From IMG/VR virus record IMGVR_UViG_2579779076_000001, positions 1 through 7,523 of that record: 7,523 bases of DNA, one strand, 5' to 3'. Source of the DNA: a virus (lineage: Duplodnaviria; Heunggongvirae; Uroviricota; Caudoviricetes). Numbering within the stretch: position 1 is the first letter of the stretch; every line of letters begins with the position of its first letter. Position numbers and translations under genes: made by a program. Shown here in pieces: positions 1 to 7,523 of this stretch. Below the pieces are notes generated by a model. The model was not told the DNA's origin. It saw nothing but the letters and a program-made list of their open reading frames with translations, and made no database searches.

Positions 1-119
1 TCGGTTCCGGCTCCACCAGCACCCTGCCGCAATGAAAAACAGGCCGTGATTCGCGTCCAGGCTTAAGGACCACCAGGCCAAGTTCCGGCACCAGAACAGG
101 TCGAAGTAATACCCGCACG

Positions 120-392
120 TTACCTCCAGATACGTTGCTGGAATGTGCGGGACGGACGCGGTGGATGTTCGGAATAAGGGAGCCTGACAGAGATTATCCA
201 GTGACGATAATCGAGGCTGATGGCTTTCTTAACCTCGTATCCGCGCCTGCGGTAACACTGAATCAGCCATTCGGCCTGTTCTTCAGTGCATGGGGGATGC
301 TGGTACCAGTCGGTTTTAAATACGTGCGAATGCCGCCCCCGCTTAATGGCCGGGACGGCTTCAGAATTGTGGGATTTTATACGTTGCGCCAT
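120..392 (-). CDS. hypothetical phage protein, basic, about 90 aa
   Basis: ORF-track ORF 120..410 begins with GTG; in-frame ATG at 392..390 has GGAGAA about 6 nt upstream; TAA stop at 120-122. No family recognised. An opposite-strand ORF (135..407) in the same triplet phase lacks any RBS and was not preferred. Confidence 0.5.
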   Translation of the reverse strand: MAQRIKSHNSEAVPAIKRGRHSHVFKTDWYQHPPCTEEQAEWLIQCYRRRGYEVKKAISLDYRHWIISVRLPYSEHPPRPSRTFQQRIWR

Positions 393-442
393 CGGGTTCT
401 CCGGTGACACAGCAGGTGCCAGTTGTTCAGGCCGGCGTGCGA

Positions 443-472
443 ATTGTAAACCAGAATGCCAGGAAAAAACAA
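443..472 (-). promoter_or_regulatory. candidate sigma70 promoter for the 90-aa gene (-35 TTGTTT, about 18-nt spacer, -10 TACAAT on minus strand)
   Basis: Minus-strand TACAAT at 448..443 with weak -35 about 18 nt upstream, immediately after the hok terminator T-run; leader of about 45 nt to the ATG at 392. Confidence 0.3.
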
Positions 473-490
473 AACCCGCAGAAGCGGGTT
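463..490 (-). terminator. rho-independent terminator at the 3' end of the hok mRNA
   Basis: Minus-strand hairpin AACCCGC-UUCU-GCGGGUU (plus 473-490) followed directly by UUUGUUUUUU (plus 463-472). Confidence 0.65.
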
Positions 491-558
491 AAGTGCGGGT
501 GCATTGAGGATGCCTGACACATCAGAGGTGGCGAGGGATTTCTCCCTCGCCGGGTCTC

Positions 559-714
559 TTACTTCTCAGATTCGTAAGCTGTGAAGACAGCGACCTCCGT
601 CTGGCCGGTTCGGATTCGTACCTCGCAGAGGTCTTTCCTCGTTACCAGTACCGTTACAACGACGGTAATACAGATGACGATCAGGGCGATTAGCATCGCC
701 TTTTGCTGCTTCAT
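559..714 (-). CDS. hok: Hok/Gef-family type I toxin (51 aa, single-TM membrane peptide)
   Basis: Translation MKQQKAMLIALIVICITVVVTVLVTRKDLCEVRIRTGQTEVAVFTAYESEK matches the Hok/Gef/RelF family almost residue for residue (recalled). ATG at 714..712 with AAGGAG about 9 nt upstream; TAA stop at 559-561. Confidence 0.9.
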   Translation of the reverse strand: MKQQKAMLIALIVICITVVVTVLVTRKDLCEVRIRTGQTEVAVFTAYESEK

Positions 715-771
715 AGCCTGCTGCTCCTTGCCTTTCGGCGCATAAGAGGCTAATCTAAGTGTGCAAGTCAT
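559..771 (-). CDS. mok: mok-like in-frame upstream reading frame (70 codons) overlapping hok
   Basis: ATG at 771..769 in frame with hok adds 19 N-terminal codons; TGAGG lies about 11 nt upstream. In-frame Mok extensions are known for chromosomal hok loci (MokC/HokC, recalled). Confidence 0.55.
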   Translation of the reverse strand: MTCTLRLASYAPKGKEQQAMKQQKAMLIALIVICITVVVTVLVTRKDLCEVRIRTGQTEVAVFTAYESEK

Positions 772-836
772 AGATATGGCCTCAGATTAATGTTAAGCGT
801 CCTGCAAGACGCATAATGTTAACTGGGGCTTTTCTC
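763..836 (+). ncRNA. sok: candidate Sok-like antisense RNA overlapping the mok start and hok leader
   Basis: Plus-strand -35 TTGCCT (728-733), 17-nt spacer, -10 TAATCT (751-756), start about 763; possible 3' stem 779-785/823-829 followed by TTTTCTCT (830-837). Position and size fit the hok/sok paradigm; ends are approximate. Confidence 0.35.
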
Positions 837-883
837 TGTCTGCCTTACGTCGGCATGCCCGAGGCAGACAGCCTCAAGCACCC

Positions 884-918
884 GCAGCAATTCTACTTAA
901 CTCTTCTTTCCCCGCAAA
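884..918 (-). promoter_or_regulatory. candidate hok mRNA promoter (-35 TTGCGG, -10 TAGAAT on minus strand), start about 883
   Basis: Minus-strand TAGAAT at 895..890 with TTGCGG about 16 nt upstream. The predicted 5' end GGGUGCUUGAGGCUGUCUGCC resembles the hok tac element, and an about 418-nt transcript to the terminator matches hok mRNA size. Confidence 0.4.
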
Positions 919-924
919 CCGTTT

Positions 925-1008
925 TTATCCCCAGCGGCAAATCGAATACACCACCAGCGCCACCGCCATTGCAATTCCTACCGTTATGAACGCTTCAGGC
1001 CAGGTCAT
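925..1008 (-). CDS. 27-aa hydrophobic micro-protein (MTWPEAFITVGIAMAVALVVYSICRWG), candidate small membrane peptide
   Basis: Below the ORF-track size cut-off. ATG at 1008..1006 overlaps the upstream TGA (ATGA); GAGGAG about 10 nt upstream; TAA stop at 925-927. One predicted TM helix. Confidence 0.3.
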   Translation of the reverse strand: MTWPEAFITVGIAMAVALVVYSICRWG

Positions 1009-1520
1009 CGTAAAATATTCTCCTCGTTTATCAGTCCGTTTCGCTTCAGGTAGTCCATCGCCTTATCCGGTAATTTGCAGTCCGGCTTCGCTTTTTTCAG
1101 TTGGCTGACCAGCCGTTTAACCCACATTGCTAATTCGCTAACCTGATTGCCGGATGCTGGTGGATTGTCGGCTTTACCCAGAATGGCAGCACAGCAGGCC
1201 TCTCTGAGCACCCAGTCAACAGCATCCTTCCATGCTCCTGTTTCGACTGGCGGATTCTCACGCTTTACCTGTTCATAAAAGCGCACAGCTTTAACCAGTC
1301 CTTCTGATGTCACCGGGACTGGCGGGCCGATGAATAAGGCCTGAATTTCATAGTTCGGCCTGTCGTTACAATCCTCTTTTGTCGGTACATATTTCCAGTC
1401 ACCAGCCCACGGCTTCCCCTGAAAGTCTGTAACGTCTTTTTTCACGTAGCGATATCGCCATGCAACTGGTTTTGCCTGCCCTGCCGTTTCATGCCCTTCC
1501 TGATAATTAATCTCGCTCAT
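1005..1520 (-). CDS. hypothetical phage protein, 171 aa
   Basis: ATG at 1520..1518 overlaps the stop of the upstream 58-aa ORF (ATGA); TGA stop at 1005-1007. Trp-rich N-terminal half; no family recognised. Confidence 0.7.
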   Translation of the reverse strand: MSEINYQEGHETAGQAKPVAWRYRYVKKDVTDFQGKPWAGDWKYVPTKEDCNDRPNYEIQALFIGPPVPVTSEGLVKAVRFYEQVKRENPPVETGAWKDAVDWVLREACCAAILGKADNPPASGNQVSELAMWVKRLVSQLKKAKPDCKLPDKAMDYLKRNGLINEENILR

Positions 1521-1693
1521 TCATCGCCCCACTCATCACAATATGCTTCGACCGGAGTTTTTCCTACTTCATAATCATCACGCCATGCTTCAGCATCAGC
1601 AGCACTGCCACCACGTAACTCTGCATAGTCCATTAACAGTTCATGCCATTCTTCAAAACTGACGTTGTATTTAGTTGAACCAAAATCAGCCAT
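1517..1693 (-). CDS. small acidic protein, 58 aa (MADFGSTKYNVSFEEWHELLMDYAELRGGSAADAEAWRDDYEVGKTPVEAYCDEWGDE)
   Basis: Not in the ORF track (under 60 aa). ATG at 1693..1691 with GAGGAAG about 8 nt upstream; start overlaps the upstream stop (ATGGCTGA) and its TGA overlaps the next ATG (ATGA). Confidence 0.5.
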   Translation of the reverse strand: MADFGSTKYNVSFEEWHELLMDYAELRGGSAADAEAWRDDYEVGKTPVEAYCDEWGDE

Positions 1694-1868
1694 TTTGTTC
1701 TTCCTCTTCGTCTTTTATTTCGTGATATGAGTAATTGCAGTAGTTAAAGAAAATTTCTTTTGCTTCGTTATGAATTTCATCAGGCGTCGCATCATCATTC
1801 ACTTCGAATTCATCCTCGAAATCTCCACCGGCGATTCCCGTTTCAATAATTATTTTGAACTTTCGCAT
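1686..1868 (-). CDS. small acidic protein, 60 aa, in an AT-rich island
   Basis: True ATG at 1868..1866; strongly acidic C-terminus (DEEEEQNG); visibly AT-rich compared with flanks; preceded by a 147-nt AT-rich intergenic region containing GC hairpins. Weak SD. Confidence 0.5.
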   Translation of the reverse strand: MRKFKIIIETGIAGGDFEDEFEVNDDATPDEIHNEAKEIFFNYCNYSYHEIKDEEEEQNG

Positions 1869-2015
1869 TTCACTACCGCCCTGCCGGGCGGTCTCCTGAT
1901 GTTCTGAGGGTGCAGGAATCCCTCCGGTTAAGGATTAAATTTTATTTACAGTGCTGATTTTAATTATTCAGTTCTGGATTATGCTTTCTCTTTCACCTGC
2001 CGTAGTTCCTGGTAA

Positions 2016-2321
2016 TTAATTTCGCTCACTGGTTGCCTCCTGGAAAATAACTGCATGCCCCAGTTTCTCCGCCAGTGCCAGCTCTGCCTTAGCGCCTGCC
2101 GACCGCTGCCAGCCTTCCAGCATATAAACCGCATCCACACAACGAATCATTGCCATGCAAATATCCATGTAATGTGGCTGAGTCAGCCCGTCCGGAAGTA
2201 CTGCGGGATTTAATACGGTATGCCCTTCCTGTTTCAGTGCTTCTTCCGCCTTGTGAAACGCCTCACGGTTGAAATTTTCATATCCCGTCATCGGACCGGC
2301 GATATAAATTCTCACCCTCAC
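2016..2321 (-). CDS. DUF4406 / nucleoside 2-deoxyribosyltransferase-like protein, 101 aa
   Basis: N-terminal R-I-Y-I-A-G-P-M-T-G motif, then F-N-x-x-A-F and V-L-N-P, typical of the NDT-like Rossmann fold (recalled). GTG start at 2321..2319 overlaps the upstream TGA (GTGA) with AGGAGG about 8 nt upstream; TAA stop at 2016-2018. Confidence 0.75.
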   Translation of the reverse strand: MRVRIYIAGPMTGYENFNREAFHKAEEALKQEGHTVLNPAVLPDGLTQPHYMDICMAMIRCVDAVYMLEGWQRSAGAKAELALAEKLGHAVIFQEATSERN

Positions 2322-2599
2322 GCCTGAACCCTCCTGTCGAAATAAACGTAGTTATTCACTGCGCCCAACTTCATCCCAAACTTTTCGGCAATTTCCCGTC
2401 GGGGTACGCCACGCTGATGCAGTTGCCGCGCCAGCTCAATATCACGCTGTGAACATTTGGCTGACTGGTGATAATCACCCCGTAACATCATGCAGATACC
2501 CAGTTCCCGCGCTTTCGTCCTGACGGCAGCCCCACTACGGCCAATCAGACTGCCGATGCTTTCGACTGTCATCGTTCCCGCACACTGCCGGAGTATCAT
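2318..2599 (-). CDS. small DNA-binding protein with two predicted helix-turn-helix motifs
   Basis: ORF-track start (GTG at 2722) lies inside the upstream gene. First ATG after the upstream stop is at 2599..2597; alternatives are GTG 2635 (GTGA overlap with upstream stop) and ATG 2572. HTH-like segments VESIGSLIGRSGAAVRTKAREL and RREIAEKFGMKLGAVNNYV. Start uncertain. Confidence 0.55.
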   Translation of the reverse strand: MILRQCAGTMTVESIGSLIGRSGAAVRTKARELGICMMLRGDYHQSAKCSQRDIELARQLHQRGVPRREIAEKFGMKLGAVNNYVYFDRRVQA

Positions 2600-2631
2600 A
2601 ATTTCCGCCCAGCGCCACTTCTTCCAGCCAC

Positions 2632-3348
2632 TCACCGCAGCAGCTCTCTGGTGGCGGTAATATCCCGGAGAATATCCCTGTGTTTGTTCAGTTCCCGCAG
2701 CGCGGCGCAGACACGCTCCCACTTCTGAACCTGACCTTTTGCCCGGCGCAGCTCGCGGTTAGCCACATGCAGCGATGGTAGAATCAGGTCATCTGCTTTC
2801 GTTTCGGTGACCGATGGCTGTAACTTCACAATGTCTTCCACGATTTCTGTTTTCATTTCTTCCTGTGTCGTCGTTTCCCGGACTGGTAACGCAACACCTG
2901 CTGGCTGAGGAAAGGCTTTACCATCGGTTTCCGCTACGGATGCAGCTTCCGGCTCTGCCGGTAAATCAGCGCCCGGTATGCAGTAACGAAATTTACCGCC
3001 CTGATTTACGCGAATCAGACGCCCTTTGCTGATTGCCATGGCCAGCGATGAATTCGCCCGGCGGGAGGTAATCCCGAACATAAGTGCCAGCTCATCCGCC
3101 GTTTGTGGGCCATGTTGTTCAATCGCCTCAGTCAGCATTTGCGCTGTCACTTTCGGTACCGGTGACACTGGTTCACTTTCACCTGCCTGAGTCAGCCACC
3201 ACATCGACCCCTTGTTATCCGCTTCACCACGGCGCTTCAGTTTCCACAGTTCGTTGACCGCATCTTCACGGCTGATTCCAAGGCGGGCCGCCACTACCTG
3301 TGAAGAGGCTCTTTTCAGTGCTTTCAGTGCGTCAAATACGGTTTCCAT
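2632..3348 (-). CDS. phage protein with tandem winged-helix domains and a C-terminal coiled-coil-like tail, 238 aa
   Basis: ORF-track start is TTG (3366); ATG at 3348..3346 has GGAGGAAA 7-8 nt upstream. Two internally similar wHTH-like segments (residues about 5-55 and 70-130) with shared GxKFRY-like ends; helical charged C-terminus. TGA stop at 2632-2634. Confidence 0.7.
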
Positions 3349-3381
3349 TAAAATTTCCTCCGACAAAATCGTTTCCCAGAT

Positions 3382-3843
3382 TCAAATAAAACCAGCAGCC
3401 TTCCGGCGTTCGTATTCCTGTTTCAGCCGTTCAATTGGCGTTGGCCCTTTCGGGTGTTTCGCCCCTTCCAGTTGTCGTCGCACTGGCGGAACACTCATCC
3501 CGTTACCAACATGCTTTGCCCATTTCGTCAGTTGCCGTTCCGCAAGTCGTTTTAACTCACCCTGCGTCATCTGGCGCTCAATCCCTCTGGTACGCATTTC
3601 GAGGCAGATGTGGTACAGCACAGGCTGTGGCCACGGGTATTTATCACTCCCGTCGTATCGCCAGGATTCATTGCGCCAGCGCCGGTACTCTTCCATCACG
3701 GCATCCACCGTAAGACCAAATGGATTTGCCCCACTCTCCGAAATCAGCGCAACAAACTCAGCCAGGTCCGGGGGCCACGTTTCACCCGCCCGGCAGCGGT
3801 CCATGCACTGACGGCAGACCAGACGGATTTGCTGTTCAGTCAT
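3382..3843 (-). CDS. lambda P-like replication protein (DnaB helicase loader)
   Basis: C-terminal two-thirds aligns by eye with lambda P (PPDLAEFVALISE versus PSPGQFVAWCREE; YPWPQPVLYH versus YPWKSNAHYW, recalled). Start chosen at ATG 3843..3841, overlapping the O-like stop (ATGACTGA). ORF is open up to ATG 4044, which has a good SD, so a longer 220-aa form is possible. Confidence 0.7.
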   Translation of the reverse strand: MTEQQIRLVCRQCMDRCRAGETWPPDLAEFVALISESGANPFGLTVDAVMEEYRRWRNESWRYDGSDKYPWPQPVLYHICLEMRTRGIERQMTQGELKRLAERQLTKWAKHVGNGMSVPPVRRQLEGAKHPKGPTPIERLKQEYERRKAAGFI

Positions 3844-4867
3844 CGCACCAATCTGGGCAATCCAGAGCTTCGAAGGTGCGGCCCCGTTCTTCTGAGTCCA
3901 GCGGTTCGAATACACCTCCCCCATAAGCTCCCACAGCTTCCAGGCCATTTCCGTTGCTGATAAATCCGTTGTCACGTTCCCACTGTTCGCGTGCTGCCCG
4001 GATTTCCTGAACTGCCCGTGATGCCGTGCCACCTGATGCTGCATGGCTTACCCCCTTGCTGACTGGTTTTACCTGTGCCCTGACGTGCTGCACGTGACGG
4101 GCAAATTTCTGCTCCCACTGAACCTGCGTGAAAACCTTCCCCTCCGCCATCCAGTAATCCCGGAATGCGGCAAGCTCAGCAGGTGTAAATTCCGGCTCAG
4201 GCAGAGCCATACCCCACACTGCTGCCCGTTGTCGAAAATCCGGCGACGGCTGCCAGACAGTAGTCATCGAAAATTTCCCGATGGGTTCGCTCAGGCCGTC
4301 CAGGTATTCAGGTTCGGCTGTCTGCAACGGCGCACCATTCGACTCACTGGTCGGAATACTCTCGCGCGCGTTATGTGTGGGGTTTAATTCTGTATCTGTA
4401 TCTTTATCTGTCGTGACTTGTCGTGACAGATGCGTGACACGTCGTGACTCATCGTGACAATCAGCATTATGTTTCCGCAGCTTTTCCCGCTCCCGCTGCG
4501 CTCTCTTACGCTCTGCCGGGGATTTTGCCGTTTGCGAAACGTTACCATTGTCCTCTTTCAGCACCTGACGTTTTTCCCATCCGGAAATAAGGTCACCATC
4601 CAGAACCCGCCCCTGCATTGCATGCAAAATTGAATCAATTACGTCTTCCGTCACATCAAGCGCACTTGCTAAATCTTCCGTCGTGACATCAATGTGACCA
4701 CGTAGTGACACGCCGTGACATGTCGTGACATTTCGTGACGCGCTCACCAGAAGGTGGATATACACTGCCATCACTGTTGCGATTGGCTGTCCTGATACCC
4801 TGGCAATCGTTCGCCACTTGGGGTCATTTGGCATGTCATGCCACAATCTGAGCCAGGCATTAGCCAT
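3836..4867 (-). CDS. O-like replication initiator / replisome organizer (N-terminal DNA-binding domain, DnaT-like C-terminal region)
   Basis: ORF-track start is GTG (4873); ATG at 4867..4865 has GAGGTG 3-4 nt upstream. Sits directly upstream of and coupled to the P-like gene and carries internal iteron arrays. Family assignment (DUF1376/DnaT-like) is from recall. Confidence 0.75.
   Translation of the reverse strand: MANAWLRLWHDMPNDPKWRTIARVSGQPIATVMAVYIHLLVSASRNVTTCHGVSLRGHIDVTTEDLASALDVTEDVIDSILHAMQGRVLDGDLISGWEKRQVLKEDNGNVSQTAKSPAERKRAQREREKLRKHNADCHDESRRVTHLSRQVTTDKDTDTELNPTHNARESIPTSESNGAPLQTAEPEYLDGLSEPIGKFSMTTVWQPSPDFRQRAAVWGMALPEPEFTPAELAAFRDYWMAEGKVFTQVQWEQKFARHVQHVRAQVKPVSKGVSHAASGGTASRAVQEIRAAREQWERDNGFISNGNGLEAVGAYGGGVFEPLDSEERGRTFEALDCPDWCDD
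4386..4458. repeat. iteron array 1: AT-rich direct repeats followed by five CGTGAC-core repeats at about 10.5-bp spacing (candidate origin)
   Basis: GTGAC at 4413, 4423, 4434, 4444, 4454 (spacings 10, 11, 10, 10), preceded by AT-rich ctgtatctgtatctttatctg (4390-4410). Lies in the linker-coding part of the O-like gene, as lambda ori does in O. Confidence 0.6.
4650..4739. repeat. iteron array 2: six GTGAC-core repeats at helical spacing plus one inverted GTCAC
   Basis: GTGAC at 4683, 4694, 4705, 4715, 4725, 4735 (spacings 11, 11, 10, 10, 10); inverted GTCAC at 4650-4654. Inside the N-terminal coding part of the O-like gene. Confidence 0.55.
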
Positions 4868-4935
4868 ACTCACCTCTTCTGATACCGAACTTTACCCACG
4901 AACTTCCGGAAGAAATCCGGTATAAATATTGTTGG

Positions 4936-5361
4936 TCAATGCACAACAACTGCATTACCAGGCTGACCACCACTGTTAGTCAGGGTGCCCCAGGCGATCG
5001 CTACAGCGACAAAATCATCCACATCTTTCACCAGCCGATCCCGTCGTTCGACGATCTCCCGGTAATATTCAGAACTGTGACTGCGCATACGGGCCACCAG
5101 CAAAGGCGGCATCGCCTTTTCGATCGCCGGTAACAGAGCCTGCATTTTTTCAACAGCATCAGGGGTGTCTTTATCCAGCCAACGGAAAATTTTCTGGGTA
5201 TTACGGGCCAGGGCTTCCGGATGGCTGTCGTCGTACAGTTCAGGGAACGTCATCCCCAGTTCGAAATAAGTCCGGGCTATTTCAGCTGCGGGAACTTTCT
5301 CACCGTCAGGATATGCCCAGGCATTCATCGCCATGCGGATGTGCTCATGCTTGATTTTCAT
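4936..5361 (-). CDS. ydaT: YdaT-family protein at the cII position of the immunity region
   Basis: N-terminus MKIKHEHI and length of about 141 aa match my recollection of YdaT proteins. ATG at 5361..5359 overlaps the Cro-like stop (ATGA) with GAGGAA about 8 nt upstream; TGA stop at 4936-4938. Confidence 0.65.
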   Translation of the reverse strand: MKIKHEHIRMAMNAWAYPDGEKVPAAEIARTYFELGMTFPELYDDSHPEALARNTQKIFRWLDKDTPDAVEKMQALLPAIEKAMPPLLVARMRSHSSEYYREIVERRDRLVKDVDDFVAVAIAWGTLTNSGGQPGNAVVVH

Positions 5362-5573
5362 GAATCATTCCTCATTTCGTGCGAGGTGTTATTCTTCTTT
5401 TTGTACAGCTCTGGGTTGTATTTCAATTCACCACCAGTAATTTCATCCAACTCAATTGCTCGAAGTTTTGGAATAACAGATTTCCACCGAACAACAGCCA
5501 CGTGTGAAATTCCCAGAGCCTCTGCTACTAGCCGCTTTTTTTTGAAATAGCGTAGGACATCATCTTTAAACAT
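5358..5573 (-). CDS. Cro-like / YdaS-like small HTH regulator, 71 aa
   Basis: ORF-track start is TTG (5609), inside the operator region. ATG at 5573..5571 has GGGGGAA 4-5 nt upstream. HTH segment LVAEALGISHVAVVRW; divergent from the CI-like gene across palindromic operators. Confidence 0.7.
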   Translation of the reverse strand: MFKDDVLRYFKKKRLVAEALGISHVAVVRWKSVIPKLRAIELDEITGGELKYNPELYKKKNNTSHEMRNDS

Positions 5574-5599
5574 AAATTCCCCCTGTAAAACCGAACCTA

Positions 5600-5664
5600 A
5601 AGGTAACAATAGTTACATGATAATGTCAACCATAGTGACATCCATTGGTAGTAACATTGGTTAC
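5600..5664. promoter_or_regulatory. OR-like operator region with leftward PR-like promoter
   Basis: Palindromes GTAACAATAGTTAC (5603-5616), TGTCAACCATAGTGACA (5624-5640) and GTAACATTGGTTAC (5651-5664) at about 23-25-bp centre spacing. Minus-strand -35 TTGACA (5629..5624), 18-nt spacer, -10 TACCTT (5605..5600), overlapped by the first operator. Confidence 0.55.
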
Positions 5665-6339
5665 ATGAACACTACTATTAGCGAACGCATCCGAAAGCGT
5701 CGAAGAGACATAGGTCTAACCCAACAGCAGGTTGCAAAGGCTATCGGCGTCACCCGTGTATCCGTAACAAAGTGGGAAAATGGTTCAACAAAACCGGACG
5801 GTGAGAATTTACATCTGCTGTCAAAACTGTTTTCCAAATCACCTGAATGGATTCTTTATGGGAAAGATATTCACGATCAAGTCGATGATTTGCGATTGAA
5901 TCAACTCCCCTACCTTAGTGACAACATCACCCGGTTGCCCGTTTTAACGTGGGAACAGGCTGGTTACTGGGATATGAGCTACCCAGTAACCGAAATCCCT
6001 GGTATTAAGAATTGGGTTGATGTCATGACAAAAACATCTGAAAACTCTTTTTTATTGCGCGTTGAGGGAGATTCAATGACAAACTCTAACGGTTTGCCAA
6101 CGATCCCCGACGGCTCCACGGTGTTGATCACTCCATGCTCTGGCAACATTGGGGAGATGGCGGGAAAGATTGTTCTAATCCAACTAGAAGGAATACCAAC
6201 TGTAACACTGAAAAAAGTCGCAATTGATGGCCCAAACATCTACCTACTGTCATTAAATCCGCTTTACAAGCCTATAGAACTCAATGGTCGCTACACCATT
6301 AAAGGTAAAGTCTCACAAATCCATCAATACTTAGATTGA
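5665..6339 (+). CDS. CI-like repressor: XRE-type HTH N-terminal domain plus S24 (LexA-like) autopeptidase C-terminal domain
   Basis: HTH segment LTQQQVAKAIGVTRVSVTKWENG; C-terminal domain with GDSM (Ser) and KK (Lys) dyad context. ORF-track ATG at 5617 would place two operators inside the coding region, so ATG 5665, abutting the third operator, is preferred (leaderless-like, as lambda cI from PRM). Alternative start 5617. TGA stop at 6337-6339. Confidence 0.8.
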   Translation: MNTTISERIRKRRRDIGLTQQQVAKAIGVTRVSVTKWENGSTKPDGENLHLLSKLFSKSPEWILYGKDIHDQVDDLRLNQLPYLSDNITRLPVLTWEQAGYWDMSYPVTEIPGIKNWVDVMTKTSENSFLLRVEGDSMTNSNGLPTIPDGSTVLITPCSGNIGEMAGKIVLIQLEGIPTVTLKKVAIDGPNIYLLSLNPLYKPIELNGRYTIKGKVSQIHQYLD

Positions 6340-6345
6340 CCAAAA

Positions 6346-6368
6346 GCCCGCATATATTGCGGGTTTTT
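6346..6368 (+). terminator. rho-independent terminator after the repressor gene
   Basis: Stem 6347-6352 / 6358-6363 (CCCGCA / TGCGGG) with 5-nt loop, followed by TTTTT (6364-6368), 7 nt after the stop codon. Confidence 0.7.
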
Positions 6369-6381
6369 CACACGCCTTTAT

Positions 6382-6429
6382 GTAACTTATAGAACACGCA
6401 TTGACTCAACGAGTAACTTCTGTTACCTT
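6382..6429 (+). promoter_or_regulatory. OL/PL-like operator-promoter for rightward early transcription
   Basis: Perfect operator GTAACTTCTGTTAC (6413-6426) and degenerate GTAACTTATAGAAC (6382-6395). -35 TTGACT (6401-6406), 17-nt spacer, -10 TACCTT (6424-6429): the same -35 / operator / -10 layout and identical -10 hexamer as the PR-like promoter. Confidence 0.5.
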
Positions 6430-6605
6430 CATTGCGTACCCACCCCGTCCCACAGAACGCCGGGCAATACTTCGAGTTACCCGGCAGTGGTCAGGGGTTA
6501 AGTAGCCAGCCCGAGGCGTATGAACATGACGGCGGGAACACTTTGTATAACAGCGCAGCAGGTTTTTAGTTCCGCTACCCGGCGTTAAGGGGAAATGAGG
6601 TCAAC

Positions 6606-6758
6606 ATGGATACGCTCAATCTTGGCAACAACGAATCTCTGGTATGCGGCGTGTTTCCCAACCAGGACGGCACGTTTACCGCGATGACGTATACCAGAAG
6701 CAAAACGTTTAAAACTGAAGCTGGCGCGCGTCGCTGGTTAACCAGAAACACTGACTGA
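6606..6758 (+). CDS. small protein, 50 aa (MDTLNLGNNESLVCGVFPNQDGTFTAMTYTRSKTFKTEAGARRWLTRNTD), possibly YdaF-like
   Basis: Not in the ORF track. ATG at 6606 with GAGGT about 5 nt upstream; TGA stop at 6756-6758 overlaps the next ATG (TGATG). Resemblance to Rac YdaF-type small proteins is a weak recollection. Confidence 0.5.
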   Translation: MDTLNLGNNESLVCGVFPNQDGTFTAMTYTRSKTFKTEAGARRWLTRNTD

Positions 6759-6769
6759 TGAGGTTGACG

Positions 6770-7144
6770 ATGGAATTTAAAGATTTACCACTACCATTCC
6801 AGGAAATGGCTGCGAATATAGTTCGTTCTCAACTGGCCACTCTTGACCTGAGTACCGTAGAAAAAGAAACCATCGATAATATATCCGGTAACGTACGCCG
6901 AGCCTTTATCGGGCTGTACGAAGAGAAGCAGCTCTCTGATAACCAGGATTTACATGAAAAATACTTTCTGGAATTAATGGACATCATTAATAAAGGATTT
7001 GGCTTGTTAATGAAAAAGAAAGGGATTCGAATAGCTCCCCTTGAAAATCATTTTACAGCAAGCAGTATTAACTCCTGTGATTTAAAGCATCACACATCCG
7101 ATGGGAAAGTTGAATCAAACAACAAAATATCAATTAATCATTAA
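6770..7144 (+). CDS. hypothetical AT-rich cargo protein, 124 aa, first sizeable gene of the PL-like operon
   Basis: ORF-track start 6758 (ATG) has no SD; ATG 6770 has GAGGT 6-7 nt upstream. Visibly AT-rich, Lys/Asn/Ser-rich C-terminal half; no TM segment; no family recognised. TAA stop at 7142-7144. Confidence 0.65.
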   Translation: MEFKDLPLPFQEMAANIVRSQLATLDLSTVEKETIDNISGNVRRAFIGLYEEKQLSDNQDLHEKYFLELMDIINKGFGLLMKKKGIRIAPLENHFTASSINSCDLKHHTSDGKVESNNKISINH

Positions 7145-7455
7145 TTTATTCACGGGTGAGGTAGAGCGCGTGCGCCGGACACGGATAAGAATCCGGCACT
7201 GACAGTTTACTGAAAGAACATATCCCTGAAAAGTCAGGGCATAACACGAAAGCGCACGGCGAGAATATAAGGCTTGTCGTTAAATTTAATTCGATCGTGC
7301 GCTTCCGGTTGTGGCAATCCGCGAAATGGCGCGGCGGTAAGTATGGCTGGGGCTTCCTCCATTGCTCCAGAAAATGCACCGGGTTGTCAGGTTGACCATG
7401 CGCCTGAGTGACAACACCGCCACAACAACCTCTGTTATCACTTTTCTGGTGATTC

Positions 7456-7481
7456 GGCGGAAATGGATATCCGCCATTTTT
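7456..7481 (+). terminator. candidate rho-independent terminator (plus strand)
   Basis: Stem GGCGGA (7456-7461) / TCCGCC (7470-7475) with 8-nt loop, followed by ATTTTT (7476-7481). No convincing upstream CDS in 7145-7455, so the transcript it ends is unclear. Confidence 0.45.
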
Positions 7482-7523
7482 AAAGTGTATTTTGTGATGC
7501 GGTGAATGCGGCTAAGCGCACGC

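Follow-up and report, generated by a model that had tools for sequence, protein, structure and literature searches.

Organization of the locus

The stretch of DNA analysed here, hereafter the window, is the IMG/VR virus record IMGVR_UViG_2579779076_000001 from position 1 to 7,523 (7,523 nucleotides, nt), which belongs to a lambdoid Escherichia coli prophage. On its minus strand, between a gene for a protein of 171 amino acids (aa) and the toxin gene hok, lies an open reading frame (ORF) of 27 codons, here called the micro-ORF, which we read as the gene of a very small inner-membrane protein that moves between phages as a cassette (Table 1). Its translation, MTWPEAFITVGIAMAVALVVYSICRWG, has a hydrophobic core of 18 residues (F7-C24) between an interfacial cap (WPEAF) and a short tail (RWG). 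A preliminary description of this DNA had placed the start codon in an ATGA overlap with the stop codon of the 171-aa gene, behind a GAGGAG Shine-Dalgarno sequence, and both are present in the sequence as described, though the latter lies 11 nt from the ATG. The micro-ORF is the final member of a chain of minus-strand ORFs linked by overlapping stops and starts and, because Pfam places the genes of the cI-type repressor, Cro, the O-like protein and P as listed in Table 1, it sits in the rightward early operon, with cro, the YdaT-like gene, the O-like gene, P and nin-type genes.

The PGAP features at this locus are the 171-aa gene and hok, and the interval between them carries no annotation. 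The micro-ORF is likewise absent from the RefSeq/PGAP records and from most of the phage records inspected, and to this extent it is indeed unannotated, as the preliminary description had it; a few GenBank submitters, however, do name it, as a "hypothetical protein" or "bacteriophage protein". The first 2.4 kb of the window hold 39 ORFs of at least 20 aa, and a frame of 27 codons, judged by itself, would not exceed what is expected by chance; its significance can come only from comparative evidence.

Table 1. Features of the window. Positions are those of the window; minus-strand features are given in the direction of reading where the analysis does so.
Feature	Position	Strand	Details
Micro-ORF	1008..925	-	ATG 1008-1006, TAA 927-925; 27 codons plus stop; fourth and final member of overlapping chain
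ATGA stop/start overlap	1005..1008	-	TGA of the 171-aa gene at 1007-1005
Shine-Dalgarno-like GAGGAG	1025-1020	-	Within final codons of the 171-aa gene
171-aa gene	1520..1005	-	phrog_660 (PHROG E = 6.5e-72); WP_028985605.1 in PGAP; third member of chain
ORF	1693..1517	-	Second member of chain
DUF7167	1868..1686	-	Pfam; first member of chain
Inferred hok promoter	890..918	-	Weak -35 TTTGCG/TTGCGG at 918-912; -10 TAGAAT at 895-890
hok mRNA leader and sok antisense region	883..709	-	Rfam RF01794, 113 bits, E = 1e-26, full model 1-157
mok	771..559	-	ORF; homology to 933W mokW/hokW
hok	714..559	-	Nested in mok, same frame; Hok/Gef toxin
DUF4406	2321..2016	-	Pfam
Replication protein P	4044..3382	-	Pfam
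DnaT-domain O-like protein	4873..3836	-	Pfam
YdaT-like	5361..4936	-	Pfam
P22-type Cro	5609..5358	-	Pfam
cI-type repressor	5617-6339	+	Pfam

The peptide sequence is conserved beyond its nucleotides

Two sets of related loci were assembled. The hok-anchored set comprises 80 loci from viral contigs, anchored on Mok/Hok and thus blind to the micro-ORF, while the pattern-anchored set comprises 140 copies (66 nucleotide alleles) found with a degenerate pattern in which the start codon, the stop codon and 12 of the internal codons were unconstrained. Thirty of the 80 hok-anchored loci contain a sequence closely homologous to the micro-ORF in its nucleotides; of these, 26 hold an intact 27-codon frame, two have in-frame 6-nt deletions with a relocated ATG and two have TGG changed to TAG at codon 3. 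In the pattern-anchored set 136 of 140 copies are intact. The sense frame is free of internal stops in all 66 alleles, and the stop falls at codon 28 in 138 of the 140 copies, a position on which the search pattern imposed nothing. The start codon is ATG in 136 copies and GTG in two, the GTG leaving the upstream TGA intact.

Divergence between copies is large and has the pattern expected of a coding sequence, with variability highest at third and lowest at second codon positions. The 70 intact nucleotide alleles, which differ at up to 35 of 78 nt (45%), encode 44 peptides. When each change is counted once along a minimum spanning tree of these alleles, 56, 47 and 144 changes fall on first, second and third positions, respectively; about 132 are synonymous against about 115 non-synonymous, where some 25% synonymous would be expected, which corresponds to a ratio of non-synonymous to synonymous rates (dN/dS) of 0.29 (binomial P = 2e-21). 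The pairwise equivalent, pN/pS, is also 0.29 overall, and 0.38-0.40 in the codons that the pattern left unconstrained. The other reading frames give ratios of 1.0-1.9, with the exception of the antisense frame that shares third positions with the micro-ORF (0.32), an expected artefact of the coinciding third positions. Diverged copies, from Av-05 (MTWPEAFTTVGVVMAVAFAVYSVCRWG, 27 aa), BP-4795 (MNWPEAFTAVGVAIAVAFILYSLFRWG, 27 aa), WGPS2 (MTWPDAFAIVGVAMSIALIVFAICRWG, 27 aa), SJ46 (MSWPEAFAIVGVAMAIAAIFIFWG, 24 aa) and SPN3UB (MNWPDAFLYVGIAWAFAYAITRI, 23 aa), have exchanged many wobble bases and kept the ORF. An antisense gene was considered as well, in the form of a plus-strand 57-aa ORF at 816..989, and rejected, as it is broken in 52 of 66 alleles.

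Because the ORF is retained over this divergence, with variation concentrated at third positions and a dN/dS of 0.29, the alignments argue that the peptide sequence itself is under purifying selection, and the micro-ORF is very probably a real, translated gene. The comparison of peptide with nucleotide conservation in related prophages had been proposed in the preliminary description as a check, with stops or frameshifts in a conserved nucleotide sequence as the outcome that would speak against a gene; it came out in favour of the small coding sequence coupled to its upstream neighbour that was postulated there, given the comparative conservation and the stop/start overlap, and no more than about 7% of the copies are disrupted.

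The micro-ORF travels as a cassette

The conservation of the micro-ORF stops sharply at its borders. In blastn comparisons with the hok-anchored loci, homology begins either at the ATG (query 52-53) or at the end of the ORF (129-139), and the match to 933W and to many other Shiga toxin (Stx) phages begins at position 1008 of the window; in 933W a different upstream gene, L0139, ends in the same ATGA. Among the 140 pattern-anchored copies, the upstream genes have ends of at least seven unrelated classes: a DUF551-type ("...PEPPQEVNQ"), the "...RNGLI..LR" type seen in the window, the 933W L0139-type, Av-05 gp123 and three others. The coupling geometry is kept across these classes: 132 of the 140 copies follow an ORF no shorter than 40 codons whose stop shares 4 nt or 1 nt with the ATG, and a GGAGG-type motif precedes the ATG in nearly all of about 47 different upstream contexts. 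In several unrelated classes the last four or five codons of the upstream gene share the nucleotides (c)aGGAGGTGAATCA, from which it appears that the ribosome-binding site travels with the ORF.

What follows the micro-ORF is just as variable. The hok promoter is the commonest downstream context (54 of 140 copies), followed by a DUF4222 gene near xis/int in a leftward operon, as in BP-4795 (21), another tightly packed gene (12), terminator-like hairpins (11) and, in the remainder, about 20 other sequences. The commonest peptide allele alone is found with three upstream and 16 downstream classes. Carriers without hok include the pL region of BP-4795, the virulent Vequintavirinae phage Av-05 and an IncY phage-plasmid, and further hok-independent copies occur in WGPS2, SJ46 and SPN3UB, the shorter variants of 23-24 aa being among these. 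Phage-plasmids of the IncY or P1-like type, from E. coli and Salmonella, carry copies as well, those on P1-like plasmids again being free of hok; 196 plasmids have a match, 188 of them non-mobilizable, which is the phage-plasmid type. Collectively, these junctions point to a cassette of about 100 nt, composed of its own ribosome-binding site and the ORF, that is shuffled by recombination between the accessory-gene arrays of phages.

A 131-nt query covering the micro-ORF and its surroundings gave 1,869 matches, which are spread over 1,360 of the 5,426 complete E. coli genomes (about 25%), with up to six per genome. Scanning one genome of each species with a strict pattern gave matches in Escherichia and Shigella only, plus three tiny contigs of 369-1780 bp (L209, L211 and L213) labelled as a Segatella copri metagenome-assembled genome, Xanthomonas pisi and Acinetobacter idrijaensis. 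These contigs most likely reflect contamination by E. coli or phage DNA and, as the strict scan yielded nothing else outside Escherichia and Shigella, a breadth beyond Enterobacteriaceae is unsupported. In lambda, no copy of the micro-ORF follows ea22.

The adjacent hok/sok locus and a second small ORF

The hok promoter was placed by reference to the point where the Rfam match starts on its 5' side (883) and to the annotated hokW/sokW locus of 933W; a consensus promoter scan did not call it. On this placement by homology the stop codon of the micro-ORF lies 6-8 nt from the -35 element, so that the micro-ORF stands just before the hok promoter, as originally noted. It lies outside the RF01794 match, which begins 42 nt downstream of it. 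In FORC_069 (L004), PGAP calls a Hok/Gef family protein at the matching place. At the other end of the element, a sub-threshold Rfam match to isrK, a small RNA (sRNA) of Salmonella prophages, is seen at 469-550 on the minus strand (29 bits against a gathering score of 50, E = 4e-4); it covers the 3' end of the hok transcript, including its intrinsic terminator at 490..473.

Within the hok-anchored set, the micro-ORF is found at most 1.1 kb upstream of hok in 47 loci and is missing from the other 33. It is directly adjacent, as in the window, in 16 of the 47, and separated from hok by an extra segment of about 175 nt in 27. Considering the roughly 20 other downstream contexts, the carriers without hok and the 33 hok loci without the micro-ORF, the link between the two seems frequent but not obligatory, one common arrangement rather than a functional requirement. 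The preliminary description had taken the adjacency to hok as a clue to function, making a second membrane-active peptide plausible at this place; with a cassette that is separable from hok, this argument loses its ground.

In sister prophages, a second ORF of 32-34 aa (e.g., MSDDISLAMEGALAVIAVVGVYCLVVFLMDRLGN), also predicted to encode a small transmembrane (TM) protein and equipped with its own GGAGG, lies between the micro-ORF and the hok promoter (for example L009 at about 1208-1312, L014, L043, L082 and L085). Other loci have the second ORF alone, at the same distance of 154 nt from the mok ATG. Over the 80 hok loci, the micro-ORF occurs alone in 24 (plus two pseudogenes), both ORFs in 21, the second ORF alone in 8 and neither in about 25. 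A short direct repeat, GGGTAAAAACG(G/T)TT, stands on either side of the extra segment in loci of the L009 type.

The upstream gene and the host prophage

The 171-aa protein has no Pfam domain; it combines an Ea22-type N-terminus, MSEINYQ, with a C-terminus of the class "...RNGLINEENILR". Lambda Ea22 starts with MSEINSQ, and this recurring N-terminal motif appears to mark a boundary of recombination within the accessory-gene array. FORC_069 is identical to the window around the micro-ORF (100%) and about 95-96% identical over the whole window, with one indel of about 940 bp: the sequence at L004 2112-3050 is missing from the window after the DUF4406 gene, near 1981-2034 on the minus strand. A remnant of 16 codons is left there (VSEINYQELRQVKEKA*), which starts by a GTGA overlap with the DUF4406 stop and whose N-terminus repeats the motif of the 171-aa protein. 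The record PP818812.1 (L003) bears the name "Actinobacillus phage vB_Apl-pPE4"; over 96% of a 1.1-kb query it shares about 91% identity with this E. coli prophage region, and Actinobacillus as its host seems doubtful.

A new family without named relatives

The peptide has no family match in Pfam, NCBIfam, PHROGs, PADLOC or the PDB sequences. The Hok/Gef model PF01848 does not match, and the only Pfam match is a chance-level one to B12D (E = 0.23). The best NCBIfam match, KdpF (TIGR02115), reaches 14.4 bits against a cut-off of 26.85 and spans residues 10-21 only, which does not make the peptide a member. A match to phrog_4612, a family without assigned function (E = 0.0087, profile positions 33-54 of 57) is restricted to a single allele, the 933W allele giving none, and two alleles tried against the PADLOC anti-phage defence models matched none of the families. 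A tandem-duplicated peptide query retrieved only short unnamed ORFs from E. coli, Shigella, Salmonella and E. albertii. In the literature, a full-text search for the string MTWPEAFITVGIAMAVALVVYSICRWG gave no match, and no paper mentioning the peptide was found. The micro-ORF product is best regarded as a new family, as yet without a name, among the small single-pass membrane proteins that phages encode.

A connection to DUF551 appears in the databases in two ways. The 90% cluster of the peptide is represented by an unrelated DUF551 protein of 121 aa, which was considered as a possible fusion protein and rejected, the peptide being absent from it. Several NCBI entries called "DUF551 domain-containing protein, partial" (P0013, P0048, P0058, P0062, P0066) are partial ORFs at contig ends and consist essentially of this peptide. 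Both the naming and the clustering are artefacts of contig-end partial ORFs and of the neighbouring gene.

Predicted membrane insertion and mode of action

The segment F7-C24 has a Hessa sum of -1.0 kcal/mol (position-independent) and a mean Kyte-Doolittle value of 2.4, and the grand average of hydropathy of the whole peptide is 1.29. The single transmembrane helix of the preliminary description is therefore also what hydrophobicity predicts here, F7-C24 being long enough to span the membrane, and insertion of the peptide into the membrane is quite probable. A lipoprotein signal peptide was rejected on inspection of the sequence, since YSIC is not a lipobox. Conservation is highest at W3, P4, E5, A6, F7, G11, A15, A17, Y21, C24, R25 and W26, among which W3, P4, E5, A6, G11 and Y21 are invariant. 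The conserved features are the WP(E/D)AF cap, a small-residue face (G11/A13/A15/A17), the pair Y21/S22 and the R-W-G anchor. The small residues form two small-xxx-small motifs, G11xxxA15 and A13xxxA17, a spacing of the kind used in helix-helix packing.

These features suggest the following sequence of events. Ribosomes that end the 171-aa gene at its TGA would reinitiate at the overlapping ATG, and the peptide would be made during lytic or early development from the early operon, not from a promoter of its own. It would then insert into the inner membrane with its N-terminus out and its C-terminus in, with E5 outside and R25 inside, an orientation based on the positive-inside rule, and would pack its helix within the bilayer against another membrane protein or against itself. 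As only 2-6 residues protrude on each side, any activity would have to come from the helix in the bilayer. The neighbours of the micro-ORF vary freely, and no partner gene encoded alongside it is evident. That the peptide acts by binding a partner is a tentative proposal, somewhat less probable than its opposite; between the functional classes considered, we favour a small modulator of membrane proteins or a self-associating helix over a dedicated toxin.

Weighing the interpretation

Taken as a whole, the reading of the micro-ORF as a genuine gene for a 27-residue inner-membrane protein, carried by a mobile cassette, translationally coupled to whatever gene precedes it and acting by helix packing, has in our estimate a probability of about 0.7. 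Several observations weigh against it. The 11-nt spacing between GAGGAG and ATG is on the long side for a Shine-Dalgarno sequence. Part of the alleles were gathered with protein-aware patterns or a hidden Markov model, which inflates the apparent conservation; the hok-anchored set and the ratio of 0.38-0.40 in the pattern-free codons lessen this sampling concern and do not remove it. Among more than 150 related loci, about 93% hold the micro-ORF intact and about 7% a disrupted copy. A 1-nt deletion after the ATG is found at two loci of the pattern-anchored set, and the change of W3 from TGG to TAG occurs in three allele and flank backgrounds (L011 1263-1346, L018 1264-1347, and L215, Shigella phage POCJ13, 1501-1584), representing at least two independent events. 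In each of the amber alleles a second, non-conservative change has hit a residue that is invariant elsewhere (E5G, E5K or G11V), as would be expected of decay after a loss of selection, and this counts in favour of the gene. A very precise packing interface is made less likely by a conservation that does not clearly favour one side of the helix (moment 0.21), and by rare alleles (P0080, P0082-P0087) in which in-frame expansions of an AM/AV dipeptide, from a 6-nt repeat, lengthen the transmembrane segment by 2-8 residues and the peptide from 27 to 31-35 aa. Finally, the string MTWPEAFITVGIAMAVALVVYSICRWG is absent from the supplements of two ribosome profiling studies of enterohaemorrhagic E. 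coli (Neuhaus 2016; Hücker 2017) and from those of the "Cryptic Bacterial Microproteome" preprint on Enterobacteriaceae.

Among the other explanations, the one that deserves most attention, although it is unlikely, is that of a toxin-like membrane disruptor in the style of type I systems, a second killer beside hok that would be made in the lytic programme, or through leaky expression, and would depolarise or permeabilise the inner membrane. The preliminary description had likened the peptide to small membrane toxins, and the likeness stands for size and hydrophobicity, which are those of DinQ, ShoB, TisB and Ibs; it fails for an antisense RNA, a promoter of its own and a family match. The cassette is no more than a ribosome-binding site and an ORF, within which neither an antitoxin RNA nor a promoter of its own would fit, and no promoter-like site was found on either strand between 900 and 1030, such a scan being a weak test. 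Its expression is tied by the stop/start overlap to unrelated upstream genes, and no toxin model of Hok/Gef, PADLOC, Pfam or NCBIfam matches. The micro-ORF, the second small TM ORF or both do precede 55 of the 80 hok loci on the same strand, and the recurrent W3-amber alleles could reflect selection against a costly peptide; yet about 93% of the copies are intact in lysogens, and the carriers of the micro-ORF include a virulent phage and many contexts without hok.

The remaining explanations deny the peptide a role of its own, or its independence. Translation alone might matter, by bringing ribosomes up to the hok promoter, by countering Rho or by forming the 3' end of a coupled series. The constant coupling of the micro-ORF to the preceding gene and its end 6-8 nt before the hok -35 would fit such a function, but selection at the amino-acid level (dN/dS 0.29, with W3, P4, E5, A6, G11 and Y21 invariant) and the retention of the peptide before about 20 downstream sequences, terminator hairpins and tightly packed genes included, make it improbable. 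An element of DNA or RNA that is not a gene at all, such as a "boundary sequence" of the lambdoid mosaic, an upstream element of the hok promoter or a structured RNA, is more improbable still. It could account for the mosaic junctions on both flanks, for the good conservation of the 5' part (TGGCCTGAAGC) in nucleotides as well, and for the apparent constraint on the antisense frame that shares third positions (ratio 0.32), a frame that nevertheless has no conserved start or stop. It leaves aside the bias of the variation towards third positions, with ORF, start and stop kept over 45% divergence, and the replacement of ATG by GTG, which preserves a valid start together with the upstream TGA. 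The region is not unusually structured (fold z-score +0.87), and the micro-ORF lies outside the Rfam hok/sok element and is present without hok. We give equally little credit to the idea that the frame is a C-terminal membrane anchor reached by frameshifting from the upstream Ead/Ea22-like proteins. The micro-ORF does stand in the same relative frame (+1) in both overlap geometries, and gene callers sometimes give N-terminally extended or fused versions; these entries, however, are either rare deletions or partial ORFs at the ends of contigs, the families of the upstream proteins are unrelated and their ends have no common slippery sequence, and the start (ATG or GTG) and GGAGG motif are conserved in every context.

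Significance

Small membrane proteins are systematically missed by annotation pipelines, and several whose role has been investigated regulate transporters, sensor kinases or proteases. The micro-ORF, which RefSeq omits, occurs in roughly one in four complete E. coli genomes and in the Shiga-toxin phages 933W and Sakai, and provides a clean example of a "micro-moron": a travelling unit of about 100 nt with a peptide under selection, and thus a tractable candidate for functional work. Its interest is raised by the mobility of the cassette, its prevalence in phages of pathogenic E. coli, the recurrent amber mutation and the occurrence of small TM ORFs in front of hok loci; adjacency to hok should not be counted as evidence of a second toxin.

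A more far-reaching view, which we consider a long shot, would make the micro-ORF a mobile plug-in membrane effector at the ends of accessory arrays, forming a membrane-active cluster of lambdoid prophages together with hok and the second TM ORF. Such an effector could enhance or damp Hok, or inhibit a protease, a defence component or an injection component of the host, and selection in lysogens would then have favoured the recurrent W3-amber alleles as off-switches.

Comparison with known systems

With Hok/Gef, its neighbour on the same strand in the window, the micro-ORF product would share a small size, carriage by phages or plasmids and a single N-terminal transmembrane helix. Hok has about 50 aa, with a periplasmic Cys-containing domain, and is expressed from its own promoter through a mok leader, a fold-back mRNA and the antisense RNA Sok. 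The micro-ORF, in contrast, has no mok leader, fold-back mRNA, Sok or Pfam match, and lies outside the Rfam element. Closer in length are the very small type I toxins of E. coli, DinQ (27 aa), ShoB (26 aa), TisB (29 aa) and Ibs (18-19 aa), which are stand-alone loci, each with a dedicated promoter and an antitoxin sRNA that is antisense or overlapping. The peptide belongs to the same length class and, like them, is almost wholly a hydrophobic helix, so that toxicity upon overexpression would not be surprising; it differs from them in being translationally coupled within a phage operon, in a conserved unit made of a ribosome-binding site and an ORF, and has no sequence similarity to them.

The second small ORF in front of hok resembles the micro-ORF in strand, in its place directly upstream of the hok promoter, in the kind of product and in having its own GGAGG, but it is unrelated in sequence, is called a hypothetical protein by PGAP and is absent from the window. 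The short ORFs of the lambda and P22 ea-nin regions (orf61, orf63 and orf60a in lambda; ea and nin genes in P22) share the neighbourhood, delayed-early expression and mosaic inheritance of the micro-ORF, whereas their products are soluble and of at least 60 aa. A further group of comparable proteins is formed by KdpF (29 aa), MgtS (31 aa), MgtR (30 aa), PmrR (29 aa), AcrZ (49 aa) and CydX (37 aa), which bind and tune larger membrane proteins. Unlike these regulators, the micro-ORF is phage-borne and promiscuous in its neighbours; like them, its product has at most 50 aa, a single predicted helix with small-xxx-small motifs and scarcely any soluble part, and would be co-translated with a neighbouring gene, as the regulators of this type often are.

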